64,000 nucleotides of DNA from Candidatus Kerfeldbacteria bacterium. GTDB lineage: Bacteria > Patescibacteriota > Patescibacteriia > UBA9570 > XYC2-FULL-38-9. The stretch lies in the NCBI GenBank assembly GCA_016182555.1, contig JACPGJ010000004.1:14751-78750 (forward strand), in the 5' to 3' direction. The position numbers and the translations under genes were made by a program. How positions within the stretch are numbered: position 1 is the first letter of the stretch; each line of letters opens with the position of its first letter. Shown here one piece after another: positions 6,001 to 45,207 of the stretch. The notes under the pieces were generated by a model. It was not told where the DNA came from and ran no database searches. It saw nothing but the letters and a program-made list of their open reading frames with translations.

Positions 6001-6038
6001 ATACAAAAACACCCGCTCGTGGAGAGCAGGTGTTTTGT
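6001..6038 (-). terminator. Rho-independent terminator downstream of rpoC
   Basis: Read on the minus strand: stem AAAACACC, a 15-nt loop, stem GGTGTTTT, followed by a T-run (GTTTTTGTAT). Confidence 0.5.
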
Positions 6039-29344: not shown

Positions 29345-30310
29345 CTATTGTTTCTCTTCTACTAATGAACGAAAATATTCTGCATAGCTGTGTAAAATAG
29401 CCGTACGCTGTGTAGCAAATTCATCAGGCCAGTAAATATCAATGCCATTACTTAATTCTATAAGCTTTGGCTTTCCTTTTTCATTAAAAAAGAAATCGAC
29501 CATAAATAGTTTATGCGGAAATAACGCAAAATGATTTTGTATTTTTTTAATAATCACCAGAATAGATTTTGGTATTTTTGCTATTGGCACAAGAATCATT
29601 TTACCATTCTGTTGTAGGTTACACAGCAGTTTTCCTGGCGCAGGAATACGCATATAGGAAATGATTATCGTATCATCAATGAGCACTACTCGAAAATCAT
29701 GCGTACCAATGTACAGATTCGGCACTCCGGCACGCGTATCGATGAATTCTTGCACAATCGAAGGAACACTCACCTGCACTGTAGCGGTTTGTGAACGTAA
29801 AACAATTTGGATACCCTTCCCACCAGAACCAAAACGCGGTTTTACGACTATGCGTGTTGTACGAATTTTTTTTGCTGCTGCCTGTAACTCTTGTGCATTA
29901 TTCACTGGAATAGTTTGTGGGACATCATCCGGAAATAACAGCGGAACAAAAATTTTATCTGAAGTGATGAGTTGTAATTCCACGGGGTTAATAACTGTCG
30001 TATACGCTTCAAGTCGTTGAATATCTGCTAAAAATTCGTAAGATATTCGTGTTTTATCGTGTACAATATCAGGTTGAATAGAACGATGTATTTTATTCCA
30101 TTGACCTTTTTTGAATTCCCAATATTTTGTAAACTGCTTTCCATCAAACCAACTCAAACACACCCGTACCATACGCACATGGTAATCTTTATCCGCGATA
30201 TTATACAATTCTTCATAACATTTACGTTGTAATGTATTGCTAAATGGATGTTCTTTATGCCAATCACTTCCTAAAAATAGCATGGCGACAACTGGCTTCT
30301 TTTTGCGCAT
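29345..30310 (-). CDS. ATP-grasp ligase, paralog 1 of 3
   Basis: VVKPRFGSGGKGIQIV, HDFRVVLI and DFFF...LIELSNG are ATP-grasp motifs. Its N-terminal domain is shared with paralogs 2 and 3. Confidence 0.7.
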   Translation of the reverse strand: MRKKKPVVAMLFLGSDWHKEHPFSNTLQRKCYEELYNIADKDYHVRMVRVCLSWFDGKQFTKYWEFKKGQWNKIHRSIQPDIVHDKTRISYEFLADIQRLEAYTTVINPVELQLITSDKIFVPLLFPDDVPQTIPVNNAQELQAAAKKIRTTRIVVKPRFGSGGKGIQIVLRSQTATVQVSVPSIVQEFIDTRAGVPNLYIGTHDFRVVLIDDTIIISYMRIPAPGKLLCNLQQNGKMILVPIAKIPKSILVIIKKIQNHFALFPHKLFMVDFFFNEKGKPKLIELSNGIDIYWPDEFATQRTAILHSYAEYFRSLVEEKQ

Positions 30311-30389
30311 AGACGTATAAAGTAAAATCTTAAAATGTGGCTAATGTTACTATAGCACACTCTCGAGATCTATATGACAAAAAATAGCT

Positions 30390-31364
30390 CTACTTCACTT
30401 TGAATGTTTTTTGCTCTATCAACTCTGTAAAATACTGTAAATACGTATGTGCAAGATAATAAAATTCTTTATCAAATTCCTTTGGCCAATAAATATTAAT
30501 ACCGGTATTCATTTCAATAAGCAATGGTTTATTTTTAAAAAAGAAAAAATCAATCATGAAAATGGCATGAGGGAATATAGAAAAACGGTTTTGAATTATT
30601 TGAACCGATGATCGCACAGATGATGGCAATTGATTCAAACGTAACCGCACTAATTCTGCACCCTGTGAAACATTGCACAATAGCTGATTTGTTTTTGCCG
30701 CACGAATATACGTGAGTACCACCCTTCCTCCAACCACAATACATCGTAAATCATGGATACCTTTGTACACACCAGGGATACCGGCTCGCGAATTAATAAA
30801 AGACTGAACAATCATGTGTGGACCAATTCGAAGCGTAGCAATATCGTGGCGATCTACAATTTGAATACCCAGCCCACTGTGACCAAAACGAGGTTTCACA
30901 ATAATTTTTTTTGTGGGTATTTTTTTCACTGCCAGCACTAAATCGTGCTCGGTATTAACGGCATAGGTTGGTGGCACCAGGTCGGGAAAAGCAATCGCAG
31001 GAAATAATTTATCTGAAATTTGCATTTCTAATTCCCACGGATTCACCACAAGAAATCGTTCACACATACTTTGCAACAGCGGTAGTGCTTCATATCGAAA
31101 TGAAGCTTTATTGTGAATCAAGTCAGGCACAATAGCTTTATTCATTTTTTTCCATTTTCCATGAGTGAATGTCCAATATTTTTTAAATGCTTTACCATCA
31201 AACCATTCTATAGCCACACGAATGCATTGAATATCATATTCATTATTAGCCAATGTATAAAAATCTTCATAACGCTTGCGTTGAAGTTCGTTAGAAAATG
31301 GTTGAGACTTCTCCCAATCACTCCCTGCATATAGTAGTGCAACAATATAACGATTCTTTTTCAT
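30390..31364 (-). CDS. ATP-grasp ligase, paralog 2 of 3
   Basis: IVKPRFGHSGLGIQIV, HDLRCIVV and DFFFF...LIEMNTG. Its N-terminus (LLYAGSDWEKSQPFSNELQRKRYEDFY) aligns with paralogs 1 and 3. Confidence 0.7.
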   Translation of the reverse strand: MKKNRYIVALLYAGSDWEKSQPFSNELQRKRYEDFYTLANNEYDIQCIRVAIEWFDGKAFKKYWTFTHGKWKKMNKAIVPDLIHNKASFRYEALPLLQSMCERFLVVNPWELEMQISDKLFPAIAFPDLVPPTYAVNTEHDLVLAVKKIPTKKIIVKPRFGHSGLGIQIVDRHDIATLRIGPHMIVQSFINSRAGIPGVYKGIHDLRCIVVGGRVVLTYIRAAKTNQLLCNVSQGAELVRLRLNQLPSSVRSSVQIIQNRFSIFPHAIFMIDFFFFKNKPLLIEMNTGINIYWPKEFDKEFYYLAHTYLQYFTELIEQKTFKVK

Positions 31365-31367
31365 AAT

Positions 31368-32237
31368 TTATTTCGTCATATGCTCATTCACAAGCTTCGA
31401 GAGTGCTTCTGTATCTGGAATCCAATAATATAGCTCCTTGCCAAAAGCTGGTGTATATATCTTCCCGCTTGCACCCGGTACAGAAGCTTCAACAATATCA
31501 CCAGTGGAAAAATGGCCATTCCGTGCAATACCAGCGCCCACGGCAAAACGAATCGATTGCAGTTGCGAATACCGTAACCGTGCTTGATTTGAATCTTCAA
31601 AATATTGCAGTAGCATGCGCATCTTCGTTGGAGTGACTGCTTTCATCACTAAAGAGCGCAATACTTCACGTTCATCGGCTTGTCGATTAAAATCTGAACG
31701 ACCATTGGTAAAGCGATCGCGAATAATTGCCAAGGCTGCAGCACCGTTTGTTGTCGTGCCGTCGACTGTTGTTCCGCCCAAATTATTCACAATCTCTTCA
31801 AAACTTCTGAATGTCACTTCAACCGTGGTGTCTATATGCATACTAATCAGCGTTTCAACCTGCTGTTGAGTAAGTTCGATGTTGCCCAACTCTTTCCCGT
31901 CATCTGGTCGTTCACCAAATGCATAAAAATGAGTGATTTTTTGCAATCCCCACTCCTGGTCATCAATTTTCGTATCACGAGGAATGCTCAATAAAAATAT
32001 TGGCTGTTTTGGATTTTTTGGAATAGACAACAAAAACAAAACATCTGATCGTGCACGCTCCGTACCACGTTGATCTGAACCAACAAACAAGATCGTATAA
32101 CGCTCCGGCGCAGTAATATAAACAAAAAAGAGAGTAGAAATAATAAGAATACACATCGTGAACAGAAATCCAAACAGAAATGCATTCACCCTCTTCATAC
32201 TAGGCAACAAGTGTTGAAAAATAACGTAAATATGCAT
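31368..32237 (-). CDS. LytR-CpsA-Psr (LCP) family cell-envelope phosphotransferase
   Basis: It has an N-terminal TM helix. FVGSDQRG...RSDVLFLLSIP...SIPRDT is the LCP core. Confidence 0.8.
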   Translation of the reverse strand: MHIYVIFQHLLPSMKRVNAFLFGFLFTMCILIISTLFFVYITAPERYTILFVGSDQRGTERARSDVLFLLSIPKNPKQPIFLLSIPRDTKIDDQEWGLQKITHFYAFGERPDDGKELGNIELTQQQVETLISMHIDTTVEVTFRSFEEIVNNLGGTTVDGTTTNGAAALAIIRDRFTNGRSDFNRQADEREVLRSLVMKAVTPTKMRMLLQYFEDSNQARLRYSQLQSIRFAVGAGIARNGHFSTGDIVEASVPGASGKIYTPAFGKELYYWIPDTEALSKLVNEHMTK

Positions 32238-33153
32238 GATATAATTTCGTTCGATTTTTCAGAAATTCTGGTGGGAAGAAAAAATCTGCCTTGGCGTTCA
32301 ATTCAACAATGAGTGGTCGACCGTTAGTAAAGAAAAAATCTGCTGTATACACTTTATAAGGAAACAAAGAAAGAGATTTTTGAATTGAGCGAATGATTGG
32401 AAAAACTGTTTTGGGAATTTCGGATATGGAAATAAACCGTGCCCCACCCTGTTGGGACATATTACATAATAATGTTCCAGGAGCAGGGGTACGAATATAG
32501 GCACCAATGATTTTTTCTCCTGTAAAAAGCATCCGCAAATCATGGATAGATGGATAGACATTGGGAATACCTTTCTGCGTATCAATGAATTCTTGCACAA
32601 TAATTGGAAATCGAATCTGTTTCTCACGAATTGCTGACTTTGCAGCGATAATAATTCCCGCACCACCTAAACCAATGCGCGGTTTAATCACTACTTTTTT
32701 TCCAGGAACACGCCGCAGTGCAGCACGTAACTCTTCTGAAGTGTTAGCATGTGTTGTATACGGAATATATTGTGGAAAAAGAATAGGTAAAAATAATTTA
32801 TCACTGACTAACAATTCTAATTCCCAGGGATTCACCAGCACATACTGTGTGGCGATTTCTTTTTTCACTGGAATCGTTTCATATGCAAATGCGGATTTAT
32901 CTAAAATAATATCTGGAATAATAGAACGTGTTATTTTTTGCCAACGTTTATTTTTATATGCCCAAAATTGTCGAAAAGACTTACCCTGAAACCAATCAAT
33001 GCATACACGCACAATGGTCATCTGATATTCTTTTTCAGCCAATGCGTACAACTGTTCATAACATTCGCGCTGAATGCTATTTGTAAAAGGTATTTTTTTT
33101 CGCGCGTCATCGCCTGAATACAGGATAGCGAGAATTTTATTTTTCATAGGCAT
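32200..33153 (-). CDS. ATP-grasp ligase, paralog 3 of 3
   Basis: VVIKPRIGLGGAGIIIA, HDLRMLF and DFFF...LIVELNA. Its N-terminus (ILYSGDDARKKIPFTNSIQRECYEQLY) aligns with paralogs 1 and 2. Confidence 0.7.
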   Translation of the reverse strand: MPMKNKILAILYSGDDARKKIPFTNSIQRECYEQLYALAEKEYQMTIVRVCIDWFQGKSFRQFWAYKNKRWQKITRSIIPDIILDKSAFAYETIPVKKEIATQYVLVNPWELELLVSDKLFLPILFPQYIPYTTHANTSEELRAALRRVPGKKVVIKPRIGLGGAGIIIAAKSAIREKQIRFPIIVQEFIDTQKGIPNVYPSIHDLRMLFTGEKIIGAYIRTPAPGTLLCNMSQQGGARFISISEIPKTVFPIIRSIQKSLSLFPYKVYTADFFFTNGRPLIVELNAKADFFFPPEFLKNRTKLYHAYLRYFSTLVA

Positions 33154-34164
33154 TTATTTATTCATCCACGCTTGAATGAGTAATCGTTTGACATTGACCC
33201 CCTGCCCTTCCACTATCGGTTTTTCATGAATAGCGTAATCTGGATTATTATTCATTTCAATAACAGCGTAGCATTGTTTTGGATTATTCGATGTAATATC
33301 TTCAGTCACTAAATCGATACCAACAAAATCTACCCCTAACGTACGAGCACTATCAATCGCTACTTTTTTAAATCGAGCACTGATACGATCCGTATAATCT
33401 ATTGCTCGCCCACCCTGACTAATGTTTGCCACAGCACGTACTTGCACCTGTTGACCTTTCGGTAATATGGATGAGAGCTTGAGAGAACACCGCTTGAGTG
33501 TCGCTCGCACTTCTGCATCGACGATCAATTGAAAAGCATCTGGGCGATCCTGATTCAATGCAAAAATCAATTCATGAATGGAAGACGTGCCGTCTCCAAT
33601 CAATGTTGCTGGAATTCGCATGACACAAGCAATCACTTTGCCCCGCAATACCAACACACGATGATCATTGCCAGGAACCATCTCCTCAATTAAACAATGT
33701 CGCGGATGTTCTGGGTTCAAGCTTTGCTTTTTTGTATAGAGGCTCAAAACAGCATTCATCGCGGCTTGTAATTCGGAATTATTTTTTATATTGAGATGTA
33801 CCCCCATTCCCTTCCATAAATCAATCGGCTTCACGACGACAGGAAATTTGAGATGTGCTTTTTTTCTTTGCTGAACCGCTTCTTGGGGCGTCGTTGCTGT
33901 GGTCCCTTTTGGCGTAGAAATACCCTGTCGAGAGAGCAACATTTTTGTTAACTCTTTGTTGATCGTAAAATAACTATTGGGTTGAGTATTAAAAAATAAT
34001 TCTTCATTATATAAATACGCTTTTTTTCCTTTGTAACTCAGCTCAATTAAACGAAATTGCTCTGCAATAAAACGCATCTTTACTCCCATCTGCTGCATTT
34101 CCATGCACAGGTTTTTTTTATACGGATGTTCCAGTGAGTTAATATATCTGTTTATTGCGTTCAT
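33154..34164 (-). CDS. ATP-grasp ligase (RimK/GshB-like, a subfamily distinct from paralogs 1-3)
   Basis: 336 aa. VVVKPIDLWKGMGVHL, GNDHRVLVL and DFVGIDLV...VIEMNNNP. The start codon directly abuts the stop of the upstream ORF. Confidence 0.7.
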   Translation of the reverse strand: MNAINRYINSLEHPYKKNLCMEMQQMGVKMRFIAEQFRLIELSYKGKKAYLYNEELFFNTQPNSYFTINKELTKMLLSRQGISTPKGTTATTPQEAVQQRKKAHLKFPVVVKPIDLWKGMGVHLNIKNNSELQAAMNAVLSLYTKKQSLNPEHPRHCLIEEMVPGNDHRVLVLRGKVIACVMRIPATLIGDGTSSIHELIFALNQDRPDAFQLIVDAEVRATLKRCSLKLSSILPKGQQVQVRAVANISQGGRAIDYTDRISARFKKVAIDSARTLGVDFVGIDLVTEDITSNNPKQCYAVIEMNNNPDYAIHEKPIVEGQGVNVKRLLIQAWMNK

Positions 34165-34175
34165 AATACTATAGA

Positions 34176-35147
34176 CTATTCAGTTATAGACGCTCGAGAT
34201 AAATCTGGACCGGAGAAGAATGTAGCTCCTGTAAAAAATAGAAGAATCAGCAACGCATACGTATGGCTTTCAATAGCTCTATACTCTGCGTCTGTTTCTA
34301 GTGTTTCAAAAGATATGTAGTCATCAACAACACTCTGTAGCATTGCCCACGCTTCTGCATACTGAACCTCAAAATGACATAATTTCATACATAATGCAAC
34401 TTCAATAAGTGTATCGATATCGGTGCGCTGGCGGATTTCTTCAATATGATTCGCGAAATACATGATGATCCATTCGTATTGCCCAGGTAAATCGTGCTCA
34501 TAATACTGAGTATCCGCCAAAATAATATGGGTCATGCTATATATCACGGAATGATATTCGTCATCCGTGAGGTCCGCGACTAATTCATCACTGGCGTTAA
34601 AATAGATCTTTCGAAATAGCTGCTGTGCTTCTTCGAATAATGCTGAAGAAACGTGAATGTGTTTGAGAAAGGCTAACGTGTTGAATGTAAAAGAACTATT
34701 ATACCGAATCGCCTCTTCATTGATATACAGCGTTCTCAGCTCATCGAGAGACAATTGGGAAAGGAGTTGCGGATATTGCTGCGCATACATTGTCATATGC
34801 AATCCATATTTCTGTATAAAAAAAAGATGGTGGATAAAACGATCAAAAAATTGTAACTTGGGTTGCTGTTGATACAGGTCTTCTCTTTTTTTTCTGCGTT
34901 CACTGAATTTTTTATAATAATAATGACGCGTATAGGAAAACTGACCAGTTTTCAATAGCGCCAAATCAGCAACAATTCGCGGTTGCTTCACCAAAAAAAA
35001 ATAAAACGCGATAATTTTTTTATACTGCTCTTCACCGGTCACCTTATATGCTCGATAGGCAAAATGCGCCAGGTTATCTAGAGGAAGTGATGCACAGTTT
35101 CTATTGTAGATATCCAGAATGCGTTTTGAAGAGATTGCGCTATGCAT
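34176..35147 (-). CDS. Hypothetical protein (alpha-helical) co-operonic with the ATP-grasp genes
   Basis: 323-aa ORF, 11-nt gap to the downstream ATP-grasp gene, 14-nt gap from xseB. Confidence 0.45.
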   Translation of the reverse strand: MHSAISSKRILDIYNRNCASLPLDNLAHFAYRAYKVTGEEQYKKIIAFYFFLVKQPRIVADLALLKTGQFSYTRHYYYKKFSERRKKREDLYQQQPKLQFFDRFIHHLFFIQKYGLHMTMYAQQYPQLLSQLSLDELRTLYINEEAIRYNSSFTFNTLAFLKHIHVSSALFEEAQQLFRKIYFNASDELVADLTDDEYHSVIYSMTHIILADTQYYEHDLPGQYEWIIMYFANHIEEIRQRTDIDTLIEVALCMKLCHFEVQYAEAWAMLQSVVDDYISFETLETDAEYRAIESHTYALLILLFFTGATFFSGPDLSRASITE

Positions 35148-36546: not shown

Positions 36547-36785
36547 TAATATCCTGCCCCTACTTCAAACTGATAATTATCCAAACGTGAAATATAGTGT
36601 GCTTTTCCTGTATATGTTGAACGAATATACTGCTGTTTTCCACCTAATAACTCATTCCACTGCTGCACATTATTTGGATCGGCAAAAAATGCAGCGAACC
36701 CATCAACTGTTCCCTGGTCAACCGTATCAGCCCCAATAAATATGCGTTCTGCTCGATCAATATAACTTTTAGCGGAATACGCCAT
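36546..36785 (-). CDS. Small hypothetical protein translationally coupled to xseA
   Basis: 79-aa ORF. Its stop overlaps the xseA start in a TAATG arrangement. Its start overlaps the upstream HAD gene by 17 nt. Confidence 0.35.
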   Translation of the reverse strand: MAYSAKSYIDRAERIFIGADTVDQGTVDGFAAFFADPNNVQQWNELLGGKQQYIRSTYTGKAHYISRLDNYQFEVGAGY

Positions 36786-37362
36786 AATAAAATTCGGTTA
36801 ATGATTGAATGGTGATGTCGGCGCGATGACACGGTTCATGCTCATAGGGGTTCCCCGATCTGCGAATCCAGATGGTTTGTATGCTCGGAAGCACCTGTTT
36901 CATGCGGTCAATCTCGCTACCGCGATCACTAATATAAAGTGTATCACTGCCAGAGGCAATATTCAACTGCTCTATATGCAGCTCTTTTGCGGTGTCAACC
37001 AGGACAATATCATCAAAGAAATGGACCAATCCAGATCCATCAATTTTTCTTCGTTGCCATTGTGGATTGCCGAAAGAAAACAACATTATTCTTTTCCCTT
37101 TTTCAACTGTGATCTGTTCTAAAAATGCTATCGCGTCAGGGTAGACACAATCTTGAGCATCATCAACAATGTGATACGCTTTTTGTAGCGGGTAGCCAGC
37201 CAACAATTGCATATGTGCTTCCAGTGTATACAACTGAGTTTTTTTTAATTCAGCCTCTGCCTTGCGGTATTCATCCTCTGAAACATGAAGGGCGGCCACC
37301 AGCTTTCGCCGCAAACATTCTGTATCAAACAATGTGTAATCAAAATCGATTATGAGTTGCAT
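36769..37362 (-). CDS. HAD-superfamily hydrolase
   Basis: IDFDYTLFDT is the DxDxT motif I. 197 aa. Confidence 0.7.
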   Translation of the reverse strand: MQLIIDFDYTLFDTECLRRKLVAALHVSEDEYRKAEAELKKTQLYTLEAHMQLLAGYPLQKAYHIVDDAQDCVYPDAIAFLEQITVEKGKRIMLFSFGNPQWQRRKIDGSGLVHFFDDIVLVDTAKELHIEQLNIASGSDTLYISDRGSEIDRMKQVLPSIQTIWIRRSGNPYEHEPCHRADITIQSLTEFYYGVFR

Positions 37363-38186
37363 AATTTCATAATGACGGCGGCGGCTTTTGGTCCAGAAAC
37401 CAACGCGGGATTATTGTCATTTGCGATATCATCAACGATCATCTCATCTAATTTCGCTGGAGCGAGATACCGCTCTACCGTGGCATAAAAATCCTGCGGC
37501 GTAAAATGATCTGTTTCGCCCGGTTTTGTAGAACGGTTACAGATATAGACCACTCGTGCCTTGCTTTGCGCAATCGCTTGTGTTACTCCAGCGACTAATA
37601 AATTCGGAATCAAGCTGGTAAACAGATCGCCCATCGAAAGAACAACCATATCTGCGTCTGCAATCGCTTGGCGTACTTGTGGAGTGGTGGTTGCAGCCGG
37701 ATCTAGCCACACAGATTCGATCCGCAACGAAGGATCGTGCTTGGGAATGTCGATATTCGTTTCGCCGCGGACAATTGAACCATCTTCCAAGCGCGCAATG
37801 AGATTGGTTTGTTCAAGTGTCACTGGTAATACGTTTCCACGAATCTGATATCGCTCTTGAATATGCTGCAATGCTTCATGAACATCGCCATATTTCTGAA
37901 AAGCTTCTAACAATACTAAATTTCCAACCGTATGCCCAGCATTCGGACCATCCGAAAAACGATGCTCCCATTCGGAAACGAGTTCAGGCCGCGCAGAAAG
38001 CGCAGCGAGACATCGACGAATATCCCCTGGCGGTAAAATGCCATACTTTTCACGTAAGCGTCCACTTGAACCACCATTATCAATAGTTGTCACAATCGCC
38101 GTGAGATCAACATCATACTCACGCAACCCACGCAACAACTCTGGCTGACCGGTGCCTCCACCAATGGTGACAATTCGCTTACGCAT
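37350..38186 (-). CDS. YvcK/CofD-family protein (gluconeogenesis factor / 2-phospho-L-lactate transferase family)
   Basis: IVTIGGGTG N-terminal motif and IDNGGSSGRLR, with family-wide similarity. Confidence 0.75.
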   Translation of the reverse strand: MRKRIVTIGGGTGQPELLRGLREYDVDLTAIVTTIDNGGSSGRLREKYGILPPGDIRRCLAALSARPELVSEWEHRFSDGPNAGHTVGNLVLLEAFQKYGDVHEALQHIQERYQIRGNVLPVTLEQTNLIARLEDGSIVRGETNIDIPKHDPSLRIESVWLDPAATTTPQVRQAIADADMVVLSMGDLFTSLIPNLLVAGVTQAIAQSKARVVYICNRSTKPGETDHFTPQDFYATVERYLAPAKLDEMIVDDIANDNNPALVSGPKAAAVIMKLCNS

Positions 38187-38191
38187 AGAGT

Positions 38192-38908
38192 TTAAGAAAA
38201 ATGTTCTTGAATAAATTGCTCAACCAACGGCAGATCTTCTGGTTTGCCCAATTCAATTCCAGCGCCAGCTGGCAAAGAAACCACTTTCACCAGATGCTGC
38301 GCCGCCAATGCATTAATGGCATCTGGAATTTCATATTCACCACGAGGAGACGGAACAACAGCATCAATGGCTGGAAAAATAGCTGGAGTAAAAGAATATA
38401 ATGCATTATTAATTTCGTATGTACCTGGTTCTGAAGATTGTTCGACGATGCGTTTCAACCATCCGTTTTTTTGCTCCACGATACCAAATTGATGGGGCAC
38501 CTGGTATGGCATACTACTGGCACGGCAAAAACCATCTTCAACGCGAAGCGGTGCATACACCTCTGGCGTATAGACCCAATCGCCCATTTGATACACAAAT
38601 GATTGTTCACCAATACTATGGCGAGCGGCTTCAACAACAGAAGCCGTACCATATTTTTCTCCAACGACTTCTGCTTGATCTACCACTTCCACTGGGTAGG
38701 GCAATGATGACAGAAACTCACGCATGCGTGCTGCATGGTGCCCAACGACGACAATAATTCGTTGAAAACCAGCAGCACGAATACTGGACAATGTGTAATA
38801 AAAAAATGGTCGCCCGGCAATTTCGACTAAGTGTTTAGAATGATTCTGCGCCAGGTGCTTCATGCGCGTACCCCGCCCAGCAGCAGCCAGAACAATCGTG
38901 CGAATCAT
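38192..38908 (-). CDS. Sugar-phosphate nucleotidyltransferase (NTP_transferase family)
   Basis: IVLAAAGRGTRM is the G-x-G-T-R motif. The ORF is open to 39004; the start was taken at the MIRTIV Met. Confidence 0.7.
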   Translation of the reverse strand: MIRTIVLAAAGRGTRMKHLAQNHSKHLVEIAGRPFFYYTLSSIRAAGFQRIIVVVGHHAARMREFLSSLPYPVEVVDQAEVVGEKYGTASVVEAARHSIGEQSFVYQMGDWVYTPEVYAPLRVEDGFCRASSMPYQVPHQFGIVEQKNGWLKRIVEQSSEPGTYEINNALYSFTPAIFPAIDAVVPSPRGEYEIPDAINALAAQHLVKVVSLPAGAGIELGKPEDLPLVEQFIQEHFS

Positions 38909-38909
38909 A

Positions 38910-39944
38910 TTATGACCGTAAACGTTTAGCCAGTACGTACAGCCTATACCAGAAACGAGAAAAAGGAAATTCAAAGGTGCCAGGGTAATCCACGCTTGTT
39001 CCACAGAAACCGATTTTGAAATCTGTCACTGTTGCCAAGCGATGCGTGCTATCACCTTCTGGACCGATGCCATAAAAATCGTACCATCGAAAACCAGCTA
39101 CCTTTGCACGACGAATGGTCTCCCATTGCAAGCCATACGCGGCTTTTAAATTTGTTTTGTGACGCGTGGACCCGGCATGCAGATAGGTCACGGTGTCTCC
39201 ATAGCGAACCATCATATTCATAATCAATAAATCTCCTTCATGCCAGGCTTGTCCAAATTCGATCATTCCCTGTGAAACGAGTGCTTCACAAATGGCGATG
39301 TAGTGCTCTTTCGGATGCTGACGAATACCGTGCCGGGCGCTTGTTTCACCAAGCAGTTGCCAAAACTGCTCAACGAGTGGCGCGATCTCCGCGGAATTTT
39401 TTGGCGCATGAAAACGCATCTCGACGCCTTTCTTTACGGCGAGGCGAACATTGTACCGCGTGCGCATTTTCATCGCCGCCAACAATTCTTCTTCTGTATG
39501 TGTGAGATCTAAAAGATGAGTGCGTGACGGTTCCACATCTGAAACTCGGTGACAACGCTGTGAAAAATTCGTAGCAGAAAACGGTGCATCTGCTGCGGGT
39601 TCAAAGCGCCAAAATACCACGCGTTCATTTCGAATAATATCTTGCACAACAGCACTCGTACTCAGCGCAGTATATACTTCACCTGAATCCACGCCAGGCG
39701 CACAAATTGGACCACGTGGAGAAAACAAAAACGCTCTTCCATAAGGCAACGGCAACAACACACATAACGCGGCGCCCACTGCTACACTTGCTTCATTCTG
39801 CACCAAGAAACGATACACTTGTCGCCCTTCTTTCTCATACATTTCTCCCCACTGCCAGGATTGTAAAAACGAAATATGTTCACCCGATTGGTGAAGTAAA
39901 AAATCTTCCCATTTTTCTTTATTCTGACACTGAACGATTTGCAT
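38910..39944 (-). CDS. FemAB-family peptidyltransferase (peptidoglycan branch/bridge formation, aminoacyl-tRNA dependent)
   Basis: 344 aa. TRYNVRLAVKKGVE, HAGSTRHKTNLKAAYGLQWETIRRAK and FKIGFCG match FemABX/MurM family motifs. Confidence 0.7.
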   Translation of the reverse strand: MQIVQCQNKEKWEDFLLHQSGEHISFLQSWQWGEMYEKEGRQVYRFLVQNEASVAVGAALCVLLPLPYGRAFLFSPRGPICAPGVDSGEVYTALSTSAVVQDIIRNERVVFWRFEPAADAPFSATNFSQRCHRVSDVEPSRTHLLDLTHTEEELLAAMKMRTRYNVRLAVKKGVEMRFHAPKNSAEIAPLVEQFWQLLGETSARHGIRQHPKEHYIAICEALVSQGMIEFGQAWHEGDLLIMNMMVRYGDTVTYLHAGSTRHKTNLKAAYGLQWETIRRAKVAGFRWYDFYGIGPEGDSTHRLATVTDFKIGFCGTSVDYPGTFEFPFSRFWYRLYVLAKRLRS

Positions 39945-40042: not shown

Positions 40043-40630
40043 TTAGGTTGCATGAAATGTACGTAACGCTTGGCGAACCTGTTCTTCCACCGGCAATGTC
40101 GAGTCAATACCCTGTAATGCGGCCACGGCTTCAGACTGACTATACCCAAGTGCGAGTAACGCATCAATGGCATTCACTGTTGCACGTTCTGTACCCGCCA
40201 CCGAGGCGACACCGTCACTCGCCGCACCAGAAAACGCGACCTGTTCTTTTAAATCCAAAATCATTCGCTGTGCCGTCTTCTTCCCAATCCCGGAAATGCT
40301 CGTCAAAAATGTGGTATCACTATGAATAATAGCCCGCTTCACTTCGTCTGCTGAAAATTGCGACAAGACGGCTAACGCAATTTTTGGCCCCACGCCAGAA
40401 ACACTAATCAACTGCTCAAAAAACTGGCGGTCTTCTGCCACAGTAAATCCATACAAATCCAACGCGTCTTCACGAATATGTTGATACGTATATAATTCAA
40501 CCGCTGCACCAACAATTAACGATTCAGCAACACGCGAAGGAACACGAACACCATACCCAATACCCGCAACGAGCACAATCAGCTCATCTATATCCTTGGA
40601 ATGAAGCGTTCCAGTAATAAATCGAATCAT
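40043..40630 (-). CDS. ruvA: Holliday junction DNA helicase RuvA
   Basis: It has an N-terminal OB domain and an HhH domain (SGVGPKIALAVL...ISGIGKKTAQRMIL). Confidence 0.9.
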   Translation of the reverse strand: MIRFITGTLHSKDIDELIVLVAGIGYGVRVPSRVAESLIVGAAVELYTYQHIREDALDLYGFTVAEDRQFFEQLISVSGVGPKIALAVLSQFSADEVKRAIIHSDTTFLTSISGIGKKTAQRMILDLKEQVAFSGAASDGVASVAGTERATVNAIDALLALGYSQSEAVAALQGIDSTLPVEEQVRQALRTFHAT

Positions 40631-42105
40631 AGGGTTGTCATGGTTGGCGTCGCTGGTTTTGGAGTGCCATTCTTTTTTGCTGCGACTTTTTTGATAGAAC
40701 GCTTTGTGGGGTCAATCAAGAAACGAGTTAAATTCCTATTGCCAATGAGCAAAGGGTATTCTAACCGTGATCGATCGAAGACATTCGGTTCAATACTCAT
40801 TTTATGCCCCGCTAGGAAAATAGACAATGGAATATGAAAACGAATCGAGGCACCATGAGAAGAGTGCACTTTCGATATGCGGGCAATTTGTGGGTGGGCT
40901 TTGGGCAAACGTTGTTGCAAATCTTCTAATAACCGCTTGGCCTCTTCTTCACTTAATTCTTCCGGAATATGTTCTGCCGCGAATGCATCAATCGCGTCTC
41001 CGAAACCGAGTTCGCGAGCGAGCGCCATATCAATCGAACTATCGTCAGCTCCGGTATCAATTTTTGCTTTCACCTGTTTTTGCTTGTCTTCCACACCATA
41101 AACGGTCACCGACTCTACCAATCCCACCACCTGCCGACCCGTCACGCTTGTCACTTCAGCTTGAAAATGACCACCGAATAAATCTTTCGCAATTGTAATC
41201 CCATGTTCTGGGCTTTCAACACGCAATCCTTTAATACGATCCAAACGCTCACGCAAAGGAATCATGTTCGCCACTTGAATACCTAAACCTGGCCGCGCAT
41301 TTAATTCCAATACTACTGGCCCTTTTTTCTTATCGATCGAAATGTCCACCCGCGTGTACTTCAACTTTACCGATTGCGATGCGAGCACCGCTGTTTTCAA
41401 AATTTCTTCCCAATACGGAATACGCATACCGCGCAACAGTACATCATTATCTGGGTGACGTTCAATTTCTCTCTCTCCCCACCACGCCTTCATCACAACA
41501 TGTGTTGTTAAGCCGGTCGAGATATCAATACCGATTGCTAAGCCGCCTTGCATCAAATTTGCTTTTCCACCTGATTTTTTCGTGGGCACGCGAATAAAGG
41601 CCATCACCGGTACCAAATTATAGACAACCACACCAATATCTGGAATGCCGTATTCACCAAAACGTTTGAACAAGGGGTCAATGGATAAGCGTGATTCCAA
41701 AAAAGCAATATCGGGAGTGTTCAATAATGAATAATCACCGTCTAAAATGTCCGCTACATGCACCACAAAATCTTCTACCGTCAATTGCCGTTTATTGGTC
41801 GTTAGCCAATTTCCATTTTTCAATCGGTTGTAGACCACCACAATTCCTTCACCACCTAACCCACGGTTGGGTTTAATCACAAAACTGGAAGGTAGTGATT
41901 CCCAATCAAATTCACGCAATTCATGACGATTCCGAATGACGGCAATTAAATCAGCGGTAGGAATGCCGATGTTTTTCATACACGCTTTCGTCGCTAATTT
42001 ATCATCAGCGCGTTTGCGGGCAGATGGTTTATTCTCGCGCAGGTATATACTGCTGCGCGCATTGATACCAAGGACCGCTTTATGATTTTTCCACATGGCG
42101 CGCAT
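40627..42105 (-). CDS. Fusion protein: a RimK-like ATP-grasp ligase (ATPgrasp_ST type) joined to a retropepsin-like aspartic protease domain (so-called ATP-dependent zinc protease / RimB-like)
   Basis: 492 aa. The N-terminal domain has FVIKPNRGLGGEGIVVV...VLELNARPG. The C-terminal domain has IDTGADDSS (a DTG aspartyl protease motif). Confidence 0.7.
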   Translation of the reverse strand: MRAMWKNHKAVLGINARSSIYLRENKPSARKRADDKLATKACMKNIGIPTADLIAVIRNRHELREFDWESLPSSFVIKPNRGLGGEGIVVVYNRLKNGNWLTTNKRQLTVEDFVVHVADILDGDYSLLNTPDIAFLESRLSIDPLFKRFGEYGIPDIGVVVYNLVPVMAFIRVPTKKSGGKANLMQGGLAIGIDISTGLTTHVVMKAWWGEREIERHPDNDVLLRGMRIPYWEEILKTAVLASQSVKLKYTRVDISIDKKKGPVVLELNARPGLGIQVANMIPLRERLDRIKGLRVESPEHGITIAKDLFGGHFQAEVTSVTGRQVVGLVESVTVYGVEDKQKQVKAKIDTGADDSSIDMALARELGFGDAIDAFAAEHIPEELSEEEAKRLLEDLQQRLPKAHPQIARISKVHSSHGASIRFHIPLSIFLAGHKMSIEPNVFDRSRLEYPLLIGNRNLTRFLIDPTKRSIKKVAAKKNGTPKPATPTMTTL

Positions 42106-43780
42106 GTTTAAAAACGTTTCTAAAACGAATATATTCGACCAACCGCAAACCAGAAAATTTTCCGATAATGTAATTGAAGATCAACGTTAACAAAATGAGT
42201 TCCGGATAGGCAAGCAGCAAGGATTTAAATAATGTCCAATCTCCAATGAAATAACCCAACAACGATAACACCACTGTTTCAATCATCAGCTTGATCGCCG
42301 CTTTGTAGCCTTGTTCAATTTGCACCGAAACGAAATGTTCGGTCAGGACGGTCATAATGAGAATCGGGAAAATAGATATCGCGATGAAACCGGTTTTATG
42401 GAAATAGGCACCAACAAAAAAGAGCGCGAAAATAGCGAGGGCAATAATCGAGAGCACAATCGCCATACGTGGTAAATACAGCAAGCGAAATTTGCGTGCG
42501 AAAATACGCGATAATGTTCCCACCGCGACAACCACAAAAAATACGGTCAAGCCATATTTCAAACCAGTGGACAAAAATGACAATGCAATAACCGTTGGCG
42601 CAAAAATACCGAATGCTTTAATCCCGACTAGCTGGCGTGCGGTCGCAATAATCGTCGCCATCACCGGCAACATGAGAATCAAGAAGAGTGAGTTGATTGG
42701 CACACCGCGGTGGATCATAAAATTCATCGCGTAGGACATGAAATTCAGTGGAGTGAGGCGATCAAATCCACGAGCCGTATACGCACTAATAATTTGGTAC
42801 TCCGCCCGGACCTGCGATAATCGATCTTCCAACCGGCTCGATGTGCCCGCAGCGACCACGTCATCTAAAATATCGTTCGTCGACACCACAATAAATTTCG
42901 GTTGGACCACTTGAAATGCGCGCTGGGCACTTTTGATACTCGACACACGCGGTTGATTATTCACCGCCACAATCGCTTTGGAATCAAAATCGAAACGGTC
43001 AACAGCGGTGTTGCTCAGCGTAGAAATTTGCGATAAGGCGATAAGAGAGTTCAACCCAACATCACCAGAGGTCCAGGTGATAATAATATCTGATGCAATA
43101 AGATCTTCTTCACTTTTCAATAATTGCTGGGCAATATTTTGGACCGTCAAATATTCTTGATCTACGCCAGAATCACGAATGGGAATGACCAATGTTCCGC
43201 GGGTGAGTCCATAATCTTGTAACCGCTGAATCTCTTTTTCTGGCACACTCTGGTCAGAAATCAAAATCACTAGGTGTTCTTGAACAGACACGGTAATACT
43301 ATCTTCACTCGTCTGCGCATCTGCGCCTTCTCCAGTGGTCACCTGCAGTACCACTTTATACGTACCCGCTGATTTATACGCATGGGTTGCATCAATGCCT
43401 TTTGCGCTGGTGTTATCTCCAAAATCCCAGTGATAAAACAATGCGGCTCCTTCTGGCCCCGTCGATGCCGATGCATCAAACAACACCGTGCGACCAATGG
43501 CCACATTTCGATCTTTTCCCGCTTTTGCTTTCAGCAGCGTTTCCTCCACAATGACTTCTGGTATTGACTCTGAAGGGGGCGTTATTTCTTCACCAGTTTG
43601 CTGGTCTGTCGGCGTTGCTGATTCCTGAGCATGAACGTTTACTGGAATGAAGAGAAAGAACAAGGTGAATATGCTCAAGGATAGTATCGCTCGCGAAGCC
43701 CCCGAGAGCAAAAAAGCCCGATGCCTATGAGGGCTTTTTGCGTATGGGGTAGCGAGCACGCAGTTTCTATACATAATCAT
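42080..43780 (-). CDS. Membrane protein with signal peptide, extracellular PKD domain and a C-terminal polytopic (about 7 TM) domain of the type associated with ATP-grasp/retropepsin systems
   Basis: 566 aa. The PKD-like segment is FDASASTGPEGAALFYHWDFGDNTSAKG...YKVVLQVTT. Six or seven hydrophobic helices lie between residues 360 and 560. It overlaps the downstream fusion gene by 26 nt. Confidence 0.65.
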   Translation of the reverse strand: MIMYRNCVLATPYAKSPHRHRAFLLSGASRAILSLSIFTLFFLFIPVNVHAQESATPTDQQTGEEITPPSESIPEVIVEETLLKAKAGKDRNVAIGRTVLFDASASTGPEGAALFYHWDFGDNTSAKGIDATHAYKSAGTYKVVLQVTTGEGADAQTSEDSITVSVQEHLVILISDQSVPEKEIQRLQDYGLTRGTLVIPIRDSGVDQEYLTVQNIAQQLLKSEEDLIASDIIITWTSGDVGLNSLIALSQISTLSNTAVDRFDFDSKAIVAVNNQPRVSSIKSAQRAFQVVQPKFIVVSTNDILDDVVAAGTSSRLEDRLSQVRAEYQIISAYTARGFDRLTPLNFMSYAMNFMIHRGVPINSLFLILMLPVMATIIATARQLVGIKAFGIFAPTVIALSFLSTGLKYGLTVFFVVVAVGTLSRIFARKFRLLYLPRMAIVLSIIALAIFALFFVGAYFHKTGFIAISIFPILIMTVLTEHFVSVQIEQGYKAAIKLMIETVVLSLLGYFIGDWTLFKSLLLAYPELILLTLIFNYIIGKFSGLRLVEYIRFRNVFKHARHVEKS

Positions 43781-43795
43781 AGTGAATAATTGATT

Positions 43796-44278
43796 TTATT
43801 TTTTCATGTGATATCGCGCTGCGGCCGTGAGAGCAATGGCAATGGCATCAGCAGCGTCGTCTGGTTGTGGCGGCGCAGTTAACTGAAACCGCAATTGAAT
43901 CATCCGTTGTACCGCTTTTTTGTCCGCATGACCAGATCCAACAATGGCCGATTTCACTTCCACGGGTTTCACTTCCTCTATTGTGCAGCCAGATTGCTGC
44001 AATGTAAAGAGAATCACCCCGCGCGCCTGGCCAACGACGAACGCTGTTTTCGCATTCTTCGCAAAAAATAACTCTTCTACCCCCACACACACAATGTCTT
44101 GATGCCGCGAAAGTAACTCGCTTAAATCTGTATGCAACATCTCCAAACGTTCCGGCAACGTGAGTGTCCGTGGTGTGCGCAACACGCCATATTCGAGTAA
44201 ACGATGATGCGCTCGGTCAATATCAACGATGCCAAAGCCTGTAATTTCTATTCCCGGGTCTATACCCAAAAATTTCAT
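43796..44278 (-). CDS. ruvC: Crossover junction endodeoxyribonuclease RuvC
   Basis: 160 aa. LGIDPGIEITGFGIV N-terminus, with catalytic acidic residues present. Confidence 0.9.
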   Translation of the reverse strand: MKFLGIDPGIEITGFGIVDIDRAHHRLLEYGVLRTPRTLTLPERLEMLHTDLSELLSRHQDIVCVGVEELFFAKNAKTAFVVGQARGVILFTLQQSGCTIEEVKPVEVKSAIVGSGHADKKAVQRMIQLRFQLTAPPQPDDAADAIAIALTAAARYHMKK

Positions 44279-44283
44279 AGTGT

Positions 44284-45009
44284 TTACAATTGCGCGTTGG
44301 AGTACACATTCATCACATCCTCATTCTCCTCAATTGCTTCAATCAATTGCGCTACTTTTTCTTTCTGGCTTGAGTCTGGTTCAATCATATTCTGTGTGAT
44401 CCACTCCACTTCGCTTGAAGCAAGCGTGCACCCATGTTGCTCCAGTGCCGTTTTTACCTCCACTAATTTTTCACGCGCCGTAAAAATAGTACACCCCTCT
44501 TCTTCAATCTGAATATCATCTGCACCTGCATCAATTGCTACCAATGCAATCGCTTCAGTATCTTGCGCTTGACCTTCTGGCTTGGCAATACGAATGACTC
44601 CTTTTTGCTCGAACATGTAGAGCACGCTGCCACTGTTTCCCAGTGAACCACCAAACTTCGTGAGTAACGCGCGAAGATCAGATACCGTCCGGTTGGTATT
44701 ATCTGTCACACAATCGATAATCAACGCCACGCCTGCCGAACCATAGGCTTCGTAGCGCACTTCTTCATATGTCACACCCGGCAATTCGCCCGCTCCTTTC
44801 AGAATCGCTTTTTCAACATTCTCTTTCGGCATATTCGCTGCTTTTGCCGCATCTATCGCCGTGCGGAGTGCAGGGTTCATATCGGGGTCTTTTCCGTTTT
44901 TTGCCGCAAGCGCAATATTTTTCACCAAACGCGTAAAAATCGCGCCTTTTTTCGCGTCAGTGACTGCTTTTTTTCTTTTAATCGTTGCCCATTTGGAATG
45001 TCCAGACAT
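44284..45009 (-). CDS. YebC/PmpR family DNA-binding transcriptional regulator
   Basis: MSGHSKWATIKRKK N-terminus. The ORF is open to 45060. Confidence 0.9.
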   Translation of the reverse strand: MSGHSKWATIKRKKAVTDAKKGAIFTRLVKNIALAAKNGKDPDMNPALRTAIDAAKAANMPKENVEKAILKGAGELPGVTYEEVRYEAYGSAGVALIIDCVTDNTNRTVSDLRALLTKFGGSLGNSGSVLYMFEQKGVIRIAKPEGQAQDTEAIALVAIDAGADDIQIEEEGCTIFTAREKLVEVKTALEQHGCTLASSEVEWITQNMIEPDSSQKEKVAQLIEAIEENEDVMNVYSNAQL

Positions 45010-45207
45010 AAAATAGTATTGTGTTATGCGTATACATACTATACACTTATTCGAAACCAATCAAGCGGCATCGCATGAGTACAAATTTCTGCTTGACGCT
45101 GTCATAACACCATGATAGTTTCAACGCAGTGTTCCCGGAAATGGAGGAAAAAGAGCGGGAACTGCTCCCGCTACACCCATGCTGAGTAGCGGGAGATTTC
45201 ATATTAT

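Follow-up and report, generated by a model that had tools for sequence, protein, structure and literature searches.

We analyzed a two-gene module on the minus strand of a 64-kb stretch of a Candidatus Kerfeldbacteria genome (contig JACPGJ010000004.1), called the window below, to which positions refer unless a locus handle is given. The module lies between ruvC and ruvA and encodes a PKD-bearing seven-transmembrane (7TM) protein and a second, cytoplasmic protein in which an ATP-grasp ligase of the RloC type is fused to a retropepsin-like aspartic protease (Table 1). Judged from sequence, it is a real, conserved and phylum-wide variant of a known system and is ordinary for its lineage. The reading that we favor, at a probability of roughly 55%, is that it represents the form of an rloABC-type system in Patescibacteria (the candidate phyla radiation, CPR), that is, a membrane-docked enzyme making and trimming acidic envelope peptides.

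The reference system, the rloABC operon of Pseudomonas aeruginosa, was named by Lormand et al. in 2025 (mBio; PMC12239564). In this operon, RloA, whose structures are solved (9g58 and 9g59), is a secreted retropepsin that cleaves runs of at least eight Glu residues, an activity for which K46, D48, R114 and R137 matter experimentally, RloB is an inactive-transglutaminase–7TM protein and RloC a cytoplasmic ATP-grasp protein (PMC12239564). A ΔrloA1-3 strain does not survive in medium of low osmolarity and is defective in cell shape, biofilm formation and β-lactam tolerance; ΔrloB or ΔrloC suppresses ΔrloA1-3, and RloB was reported to be 96% proteobacterial (PMC12239564). The second point of reference is the RimK/RimB pair, which acts on the Glu-rich C terminus of ribosomal protein S6. 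RimB, a retropepsin-like endopeptidase, shortens polyglutamate tails and also stimulates RimK, whose synthesis of poly-α-L-glutamate rises about fourfold (Little et al. 2025, JBC; PMC11957791). A natural RimB–RimK hybrid (RimBK), with the protease N-terminal, is active and occurs mainly in Flavobacteriales and Rhodobacterales (PMC11957791).

Compared with an rloABC locus of a Pseudomonas sp., identity was 39% over 334 amino acids (aa) for the ligase (4e-68), 31% over 176 aa for the protease (4e-10) and 27.5% over 229 aa for the 7TM domain (6e-28). A sequence-only reading of the window had proposed two minus-strand genes between ruvC and ruvA with a 26-nt overlap, encoding secreted PKD, 7TM_transglut, ATPgrasp_ST and DTG retropepsin-like domains, and had recognized in them a triad of 7TM protein, ATP-grasp ligase and retropepsin. 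Both open reading frames (ORFs) are present as described, the PKD_4, 7TM_transglut, ATPgrasp_ST and Zn_protease matches all exceeded the Pfam gathering thresholds, and the triad was correctly identified. Neither of the grounds on which that reading proposed to abandon the call was observed: every named domain has hidden Markov model (HMM) support, and the genes are not pseudogenized, with consistent orthologue lengths in about 60 loci, invariant catalytic residues and one apparent frameshift (L037). In most of these orthologous loci, the membrane-protein and fusion genes overlap or are separated by short gaps. The overlap implies that the two genes are probably translationally coupled. The NCBI record starts the fusion gene at its second ATG, at 42096; at its other end, the gene overlaps ruvA by 4 nt.

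The ligase half scored 195 bits with ATPgrasp_ST (PF14397; cutoff 31.4), and its best NCBIfam match was TIGR02291, ‘α-L-glutamate ligase-like’, at 243 bits. The ATP-grasp signature residues, comprising K78 in FVIKPNRGLGGEG, a glycine-rich loop, D254, and E267 and N269 in LELNARPG, are invariant among homologues, and these Mg/ATP residues align with the corresponding RimK motif. AlphaFold2 (AF2) models of the two proteins were confident, with mean predicted local distance difference test (pLDDT) values of 83.9 and 83.3. Foldseek comparison of the modeled ligase revealed a fold resembling ArgX, LysX, RimK, Ddl and cyanophycin synthetase, of which ArgX, LysX and RimK are ligases acting on C-terminal Glu. 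Hydropathy analysis of the fusion protein revealed no transmembrane (TM) segment, hydrophobic segment or signal peptide.

The protease half matched PF05618 (Zn_protease), a family labeled ‘RimB-like’ in precomputed annotations, but is nearer to RloA than to RimB according to NCBIfam (8e-10 and 38.6 bits versus 4e-3 and 16.8 bits). It also matched the RloA structures 9g58 and 9g59, with an E value of 1.5e-6 for 9g58. Scores with the RloA1–3 models were 28–39 bits, far under the cutoffs of 210–280, and the domain is, therefore, probably a distant member of the RloA family. The four RloA residues K46, D48, R114 and R137 correspond to K348, D350, R422 and R445 of the fusion protein and are invariant among fused homologues, and D[T/S]GA was present in all 120 of its best homologues. 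Retropepsins of clan AA are one-lobed proteins that carry a D-T/S-G-A loop for catalysis and work as homodimers; the fused domain has the motif, and its AF2 model features a β-rich retropepsin core. ATP-grasp matches dominated the Foldseek search with the fusion model, which did not corroborate the protease domain in its own right; sequence matches served to assign this domain. AF2 and HMM alignment to 9g58 placed the two-helix segment of the fused CPR form where RloA has a β-rich segment carrying R92. Because the fused protease lacks a signal peptide, trimming is predicted to be cytoplasmic and RimB-like, unlike that by secreted RloA, with both catalytic domains of the fusion in the cytoplasm.

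The membrane protein combines two extracytoplasmic domains with a C-terminal 7TM domain. Hydropathy and the positive-inside rule gave an N-terminal signal peptide and seven TM helices in an N-out/C-in arrangement, with the basic C-terminal tail on the cytoplasmic side. The 7TM_transglut domain scored 112.5 bits with PF14402 (cutoff 25), and the C-terminal half of the protein matched the NCBIfam entry ‘osmotic stress tolerance membrane protein RloB’ at 1.9e-23. Its PKD domain, a β-sandwich of about 80 aa with a WDFGDG motif, belongs to the PKD family (PF18911/PF00801). The second ectodomain alternates β-strands and α-helices in a flavodoxin/CheY-like, not transglutaminase-like, fold and had no Pfam or NCBIfam match; when this domain was the sole query of a word-indexed protein search, nothing matched, not even any of the more than 100 known members in the same database, and the result is uninformative, probably owing to an index limit. 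No inactive transglutaminase domain was found N-terminal to the 7TM domain.

Three kinds of 7TM protein, namely PKD-type, bare-7TM and proteobacterial RloB proteins, share the G-x3-G-x-R-x5-R-F motif in the cytoplasmic tail. Further positions kept across all three are P372, R382, G386, G391, P395 and G410. The positions retained in every form mostly fall within TM helices 1 and 2, together with cytoplasmic loop 1, and within the C-terminal tail on the cytoplasmic side. We infer that the conserved tail may be a docking surface for the ligase, as retention of cytoplasmic positions in all forms is expected if the cytoplasmic face has this role.

To place the module among its relatives, we compared homologues and loci. 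Scoring of 8,000 candidates revealed more than 1,300 relatives of the fusion protein at E ≤ 1e-5, and the best 120 were all fusions of 450–530 aa except for one of 675 aa. A scan of one genome per species yielded at least 598 loci, of which the best 80 (L001–L080) were used for comparison. In 63 of these (L001–L063), the ligase carries a C-terminal peptidase extension, and the genomes are mostly labeled as Patescibacteria (Kerfeld-, Falkow-, Moran-, Pacei-, Dojka-, Shapiro-, Peregrini-, Gracili- and Saccharibacteria); some fused loci have non-CPR labels such as ‘uncultured Bdellovibrionales’, which we suspect to be binning labels. The other 17 (L064–L080), mostly from Proteobacteria, are unfused RloC genes adjoining RloB. 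In a rough neighbor-joining tree of ligase domains, all fused forms make up one clade apart from the unfused ones. The sequence-only reading had regarded the ligase–protease fusion as atypical. This view does not hold, as the fusion is present in every CPR locus recovered, and the RimBK hybrid is an active enzyme (PMC11957791).

A 7TM partner was identified in 59 of 64 clustered sequences (63 CPR loci and the window), with the loci lacking it mostly cut by contig ends. The partner occurs in two forms: a bare 7TM protein of ~215–230 aa without an ectodomain, found in most CPR loci, and a PKD–α/β–7TM protein of ~515–550 aa, found in Kerfeldbacteria, Falkowbacteria and some others and located on deeper CPR branches of the ligase tree. 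The earlier suggestion that a PKD domain stands in place of the usual transglutaminase was, thus, right in that PKD is present and transglutaminase absent, but it overlooked the second ectodomain, and most CPR partners have no ectodomain at all.

The peptidase part of the fusion also varies. In five loci (L032, L057, L059, L060 and L062) from Peregrinibacteria, Gracilibacteria and others, fusions of 775–800 aa, with ORFs starting near position 6001, or 3486 or 4817, of their loci, bear a C-terminal MATCAP/DUF1704 metallocarboxypeptidase domain (1e-63), and four of these fusions have a decayed retropepsin DTG, which reads DTT, DPG, DTS or SLE. The type of peptidase is swapped but stays on the ligase polypeptide, which fits an obligate pairing of ligase and peptidase. 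To our knowledge, the published MATCAP enzymes are eukaryotic tubulin carboxypeptidases, and a literature search retrieved no paper joining MATCAP/DUF1704 with ATP-grasp and bacteria. In two further loci, a second retropepsin-type sequence directly follows the fusion gene (L002, 4341–4784; L033, 2843–3334); the one in L033 forms an ORF of its own (163 aa) and lacks a signal peptide. This arrangement fits a dimeric protease and hints at pairing, in which the second retropepsin could be a heterodimer partner of the fused domain.

According to the rloABC-type reading, the membrane and fusion proteins would be made together through translational coupling, and the ligase would dock on the 7TM protein at the conserved loop and tail of its cytoplasmic face. 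There, it would spend ATP to build α-linked, glutamate-rich acidic chains, on an acceptor or as a free polymer, as RimK does. The protease domains would dimerize, as retropepsins must, and cut chains of roughly eight or more acidic residues, which would limit chain length, recycle product and possibly stimulate the ligase as RimB does RimK. The 7TM protein would then pass the product to the cell envelope or, alternatively, tie the activity of the ligase to an envelope state that its ectodomain senses. One to three additional RimK-like or CphA-like ATP-grasp ligases, encoded directly downstream in most CPR genomes, would probably extend or diversify the peptide. Since the CPR protease is predicted to be cytoplasmic, trimming would precede export, unlike that by the periplasmic RloA of Pseudomonas. 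By analogy, it fits that the product of the ligase and 7TM protein is the protease substrate, because loss of RloB or RloC rescues protease loss in Pseudomonas. The case appears stronger in CPR: the natural fusion physically tethers the protease to the ligase such that the protease substrate must be reachable in the cytoplasm beside the ligase, which favors the ligase product over an unrelated periplasmic protein.

Several points weigh against the rloABC-type reading. The 243-bit TIGR02291 score lies below the hypothetical-equivalog cutoff of 314, and we infer glutamate as the ligase substrate solely from family resemblance. As two helices replace the RloA segment carrying R92, the modeled protease could differ from RloA in specificity. 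Structure comparison with the 7TM bundle returned no informative relative, so that an export role of this protein is a guess. A search of the window for an acceptor identified no rpsF, no ORF with an acidic tail and no polyglutamate or polyaspartate run. The extra ATP-grasp ligases are linked to the module by synteny alone, with six unrelated genes between module and array in the window. Lastly, if the toxic Pseudomonas product is periplasmic, a cytoplasmic CPR protease implies a partly different logic.

The genomic context of the module bears on three other explanations. A further ATP-grasp ligase is encoded immediately after the fusion gene in 37 loci; such extra ligases belong to two families, present in 28 and 20 loci and often in two to three copies. 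In two loci, the ORF directly following the fusion gene has roughly double its normal size (L003, 7417–9195, 592 aa; L010, 7416–9323, 635 aa), consisting of two tandem ATP-grasp modules in L010 and with an ATP-grasp match in the N-terminal half only in L003. In the window, the corresponding ATP-grasp array, including a DUF3541 gene, spans 29345–35147. Its ligase AG1 belongs to a family that directly follows the fusion gene in many CPR loci and is, on this basis, a probable displaced member of the module system.

One such explanation is a wall-decoration pathway, in which the ligase and extra ligases add amino acids to a lipid-linked or nucleotide-linked wall intermediate that the 7TM protein flips or presents and the protease edits. 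Wall genes are recurrent neighbors: 18 CPR loci (for example, L008, L016, L025 and L063) encode a class A penicillin-binding protein of ~855 aa on the same strand, past the ATP-grasp genes and 1–3 kb downstream of the fusion gene, FemAB lies next to ruvA in Kerfeldbacteria, an LCP-family gene lies within the array of the window, and a Mur ligase follows the array in the Kerfeldbacteria relative L083. The cell-shape, β-lactam and hypo-osmotic phenotypes of Pseudomonas rlo mutants (PMC12239564) would also suit this pathway, as would the Ddl-like aspect of the ligase fold. However, the protease retains exactly the basic residues with which RloA binds polyglutamate, and the wall neighbors are inconstant, with loci in ribosomal operons having none upstream. 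CPR bacteria typically have small genomes in which many housekeeping genes are adjacent by chance. We consider wall decoration unlikely, and it would be compatible with the rloABC-type reading if the product were a wall-attached acidic peptide.

A more far-reaching proposal would make the module and the accompanying ATP-grasp ligases a core, ancient pathway of Patescibacteria, in which a cytoplasmic, polyglutamate-like acidic polymer of protease-set length is delivered by the 7TM protein to the wall as an anionic polymer replacing teichoic acids, and in which the fused cytoplasmic form is ancestral to proteobacterial rloABC. Such ancestry would be the opposite of the published scenario, in which rim gave rise to rlo within Gammaproteobacteria, and we regard the idea as speculative and rather improbable.

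The module might instead be a ribosome modification system of the RimK/RimB type. Both catalytic domains appear to be cytoplasmic, as in RimK and RimB, an active RimBK hybrid exists (PMC11957791), and in 9–10 CPR loci the module directly follows nusG-rplK-rplA-rplJ-rplL instead of yebC-ruvC. These ribosomal-operon loci include L012, L017, L018, L041, L043, L045, L048, L049 and L052, several of which are labeled Dojkabacteria or Saccharibacteria. Family assignments argue otherwise. Compared with its score for the RloC-type model TIGR02291, the ligase reached only 37.4 bits with the RimK family model TIGR00768 (cutoff 143), and the PF08443 (RimK) match covers only aa 234–275, right at threshold. 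The protease likewise stayed at 16.8 bits with the RimB model NF052261, with a cutoff of 200. Moreover, the Rim system has no counterpart to the widespread 7TM partner with its conserved cytoplasmic motifs, ligase and protease stand in the opposite order to that in RimBK, and the window lacks rpsF. Ribosome modification is, thus, a very improbable function of the module.

The sequence-only reading had further considered the location inside the ruv operon unusual and suggestive of a local insertion. In 33 CPR loci, ruvC lies directly upstream of the 7TM gene and is usually preceded by yebC, and these yebC-ruvC-7TM-fusion loci span both deep and derived branches of the ligase tree. In L003 and L008, ruvA follows the extra ligase genes, and it, therefore, seems that the whole ligase cluster has stood between ruvC and ruvA since before the lineages diverged. 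Kerfeldbacteria share the order yebC-ruvC-PKD7TM-fusion-ruvA-FemAB-NTP_transferase-CofD-HAD-xseA, followed by the ATP-grasp array, even among genomes with proteins only ~60% identical; specific to them is the ~6-kb separation of the module from the ligase array by ruvA and five more genes, the last of which is xseA. Because the yebC-ruvC-module order is kept so widely, the position of the module is, by synteny, old and vertically inherited, and ‘inserted between ruvC and ruvA’ is true only of an ancient event. A recent lineage-specific insertion, by horizontal transfer or as a mobile cassette, that disrupted a ruvC-ruvA operon can practically be dismissed: ruvC and ruvA are adjacent or close in most bacteria and a U-run hairpin separates ruvC from the module in this genome, but the synteny just described, GC content (0.42–0.49 across the region) and skew that continue smoothly from the flanks into the module, the lack of the hairpin in relatives and the lack of any visible integrase or repeats all speak against it.

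The hairpin, with its U-run, occupies 43708–43741 on the minus strand (AAAAAGCCC…GGGCUUUUUU; ΔG −21.4 kcal/mol, z −3), between the ruvC stop codon and the likely start of the membrane-protein gene. An Rfam scan of the 64-kb window gave no matches, and the hairpin was not among the results of a consensus scan. We rejected it as a conserved terminator, as it is missing in L001 and other Kerfeldbacteria have no spacer at all at this site. Candidate starts of the membrane-protein gene are ATG 43780 (566 aa), TTG 43711 (543 aa) and TTG 43681 (532 aa, used by NCBI). The choice among them is uncertain, with TTG 43711, which lies within the U-run, best fitting the signal peptides of homologues; if ATG 43780 is the start, the hairpin falls within the ORF. 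It could, thus, be a terminator, a translational control element or plain coding sequence.

Two further observations concern the surroundings of the module in Kerfeldbacteria. A block encoding a FemAB-family transferase, an NTP_transferase, a YvcK-like CofD protein and a HAD hydrolase adjoins ruvA (36769–39944, minus strand, in the window; 13.6–17 kb in L081 and L083) and is a possible cell-wall precursor module. Upstream of yebC, at 0.4–3.5 kb, the Kerfeldbacteria relatives L081–L083 carry clusters of small T4SS_pilin/TrbC-like genes, four to six in number, along with a gene for a DUF2079 membrane protein.

Table 1 Features of the module and its surroundings in the window.
Feature	Positions	Strand	Details
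PKD/α-β/7TM membrane-protein gene (RloB-like 7TM domain)	42080–43780	−	Longest ORF, 566 aa
Predicted signal peptide	43625–43711	−	Cleavage between …AILSLSIFTLFFLFIPVNVHA and QE; AXA-type motif common to homologues
PKD domain, extracytoplasmic	43289–43528	−	PKD_4, 7e-22, aa 85–164
Second ectodomain, alternating β/α, flavodoxin/CheY-like fold	42782–43276	−	~165 aa
7TM_transglut domain, seven TM helices, N-out/C-in	42083–42751	−	PF14402, 3e-32, aa 364–556
Cytoplasmic C-terminal tail motif G-x3-G-x-R-x5-R-F	42122–42163	−	G540, G544, R546, R552, F553
Fusion gene, RloC-type ATP-grasp ligase and retropepsin-like protease, cytoplasmic bifunctional product	40627–42105	−	492 aa
Overlap of membrane-protein and fusion genes	42080–42105	−	26 nt for longest ORFs; 17 nt from ATG 42096
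ATPgrasp_ST domain (RloC-type, α-L-glutamate-ligase-like)	41230–42054	−	PF14397, 2e-57, aa 18–292
Retropepsin-like (RloA/RimB family) aspartic protease domain	40696–41151	−	PF05618, 2.3e-11; no signal peptide
Catalytic DTGA motif	41047–41058	−	Preceding K348 corresponds to RloA K46
Two-helix segment after DTG loop, specific to fused CPR form	40897–41028	−	AF2 helices 357–373 and 383–400
yebC	44284–45060	−	Pfam YebC, 9e-53; kept further upstream of module
ruvC	43796–44278	−	Pfam RuvC, 1e-39; upstream neighbor of module in 33 CPR loci
ruvA	40043–40630	−	Pfam RuvA_N, 4e-19; directly downstream of fusion gene only in Kerfeldbacteria
FemAB-family gene	38910–39944	−	Downstream of ruvA
DUF3541 gene	34176–35147	−	Just upstream of ATP-grasp array
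AG1, cyanophycin-synthetase/GshB-like ATP-grasp ligase	33154–34164	−	Family directly follows fusion gene in many CPR loci
AG2, RimK/glutathione-synthase-like ATP-grasp ligase	32200–33153	−	
LCP-family wall-polymer transferase	31368–32237	−	Within ATP-grasp array
AG3, RimK-like ATP-grasp ligase	30390–31364	−	
AG4, RimK-like ATP-grasp ligase	29345–30310	−	

For CPR biology, the module points to a conserved, unstudied envelope-associated peptide pathway. The fusion appears to join ligase and protease activities in one compact polypeptide of ~490 aa, and the variants in which a MATCAP domain was added and the DTG decayed represent natural experiments on which step is essential. A literature search retrieved no paper linking Patescibacteria with RimK, RimB or retropepsin-like proteases.

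Among known systems, one comparison is with the eukaryotic tubulin tyrosine-ligase-like enzymes and MATCAP or cytosolic carboxypeptidases. Tubulin tyrosine-ligase-like enzymes are ATP-grasp ligases that add residues to acidic tails and are opposed by dedicated peptidases; the likeness does not go beyond this logic, and MATCAP is absent from the window protein. Another is with a prediction reportedly made by Iyer, Abhiman, Burroughs and Aravind (2009, Mol Biosyst), who are said to have associated a 7TM–inactive-transglutaminase protein with an ATP-grasp enzyme and a protease and to be the source of PF14402 and PF14397. The same Pfam families occur in adjacent genes at the window locus. CPR genomes were barely available in 2009.

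With RimK/RimB and RimBK, the module shares the pairing of an ATP-grasp ligase with a cytoplasmic, retropepsin-like endopeptidase that recognizes polyglutamate, and a single-polypeptide hybrid exists in both cases. The differences lie in domain order, as the protease is N-terminal in RimBK whereas the window fusion has an N-terminal ligase and a C-terminal protease, in the PF14397/TIGR02291 type of the ligase, in the closer affinity of the protease to RloA, and in the 7TM partner, which the Rim system lacks. RimBK, moreover, is known mainly from Flavobacteriales and Rhodobacterales, not from CPR.

The nearest known system is rloABC. The same three protein modules are present, with the 7TM gene followed by the adjacent ligase gene, and the invariant cytoplasmic positions of the 7TM domain are common to proteobacterial RloB and the CPR partners. 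The sequence-only reading had taken the triad to be uncharacterized, which is still true of the biochemistry of RloB and RloC but no longer of the protease and the genetics, given the rloABC study with its solved RloA structures (PMC12239564). Unlike RloA, which is separate and secreted and had a signal peptide in all five of the proteobacterial proteins extracted, the CPR protease is fused to the ligase C terminus and has no signal peptide. The gene order is B-(C::A) in CPR and A-B-C in rloABC, the ectodomain is PKD with α/β or, in most CPR, absent instead of an inactive transglutaminase, and extra ATP-grasp ligases usually accompany the CPR module. By its domain content, the module, thus, belongs to the Rlo-like class, broadly understood, lacking two features that define rloABC (the transglutaminase domain and the separate secreted protease) and falling below the RimK and RimB thresholds. 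The Rlo system was described only in 2025, with RloB reported as 96% proteobacterial, whereas we found the same three modules widespread in housekeeping operons of Patescibacteria, an occurrence that, at the sequence level, contradicts the reported taxonomic restriction of Rlo.

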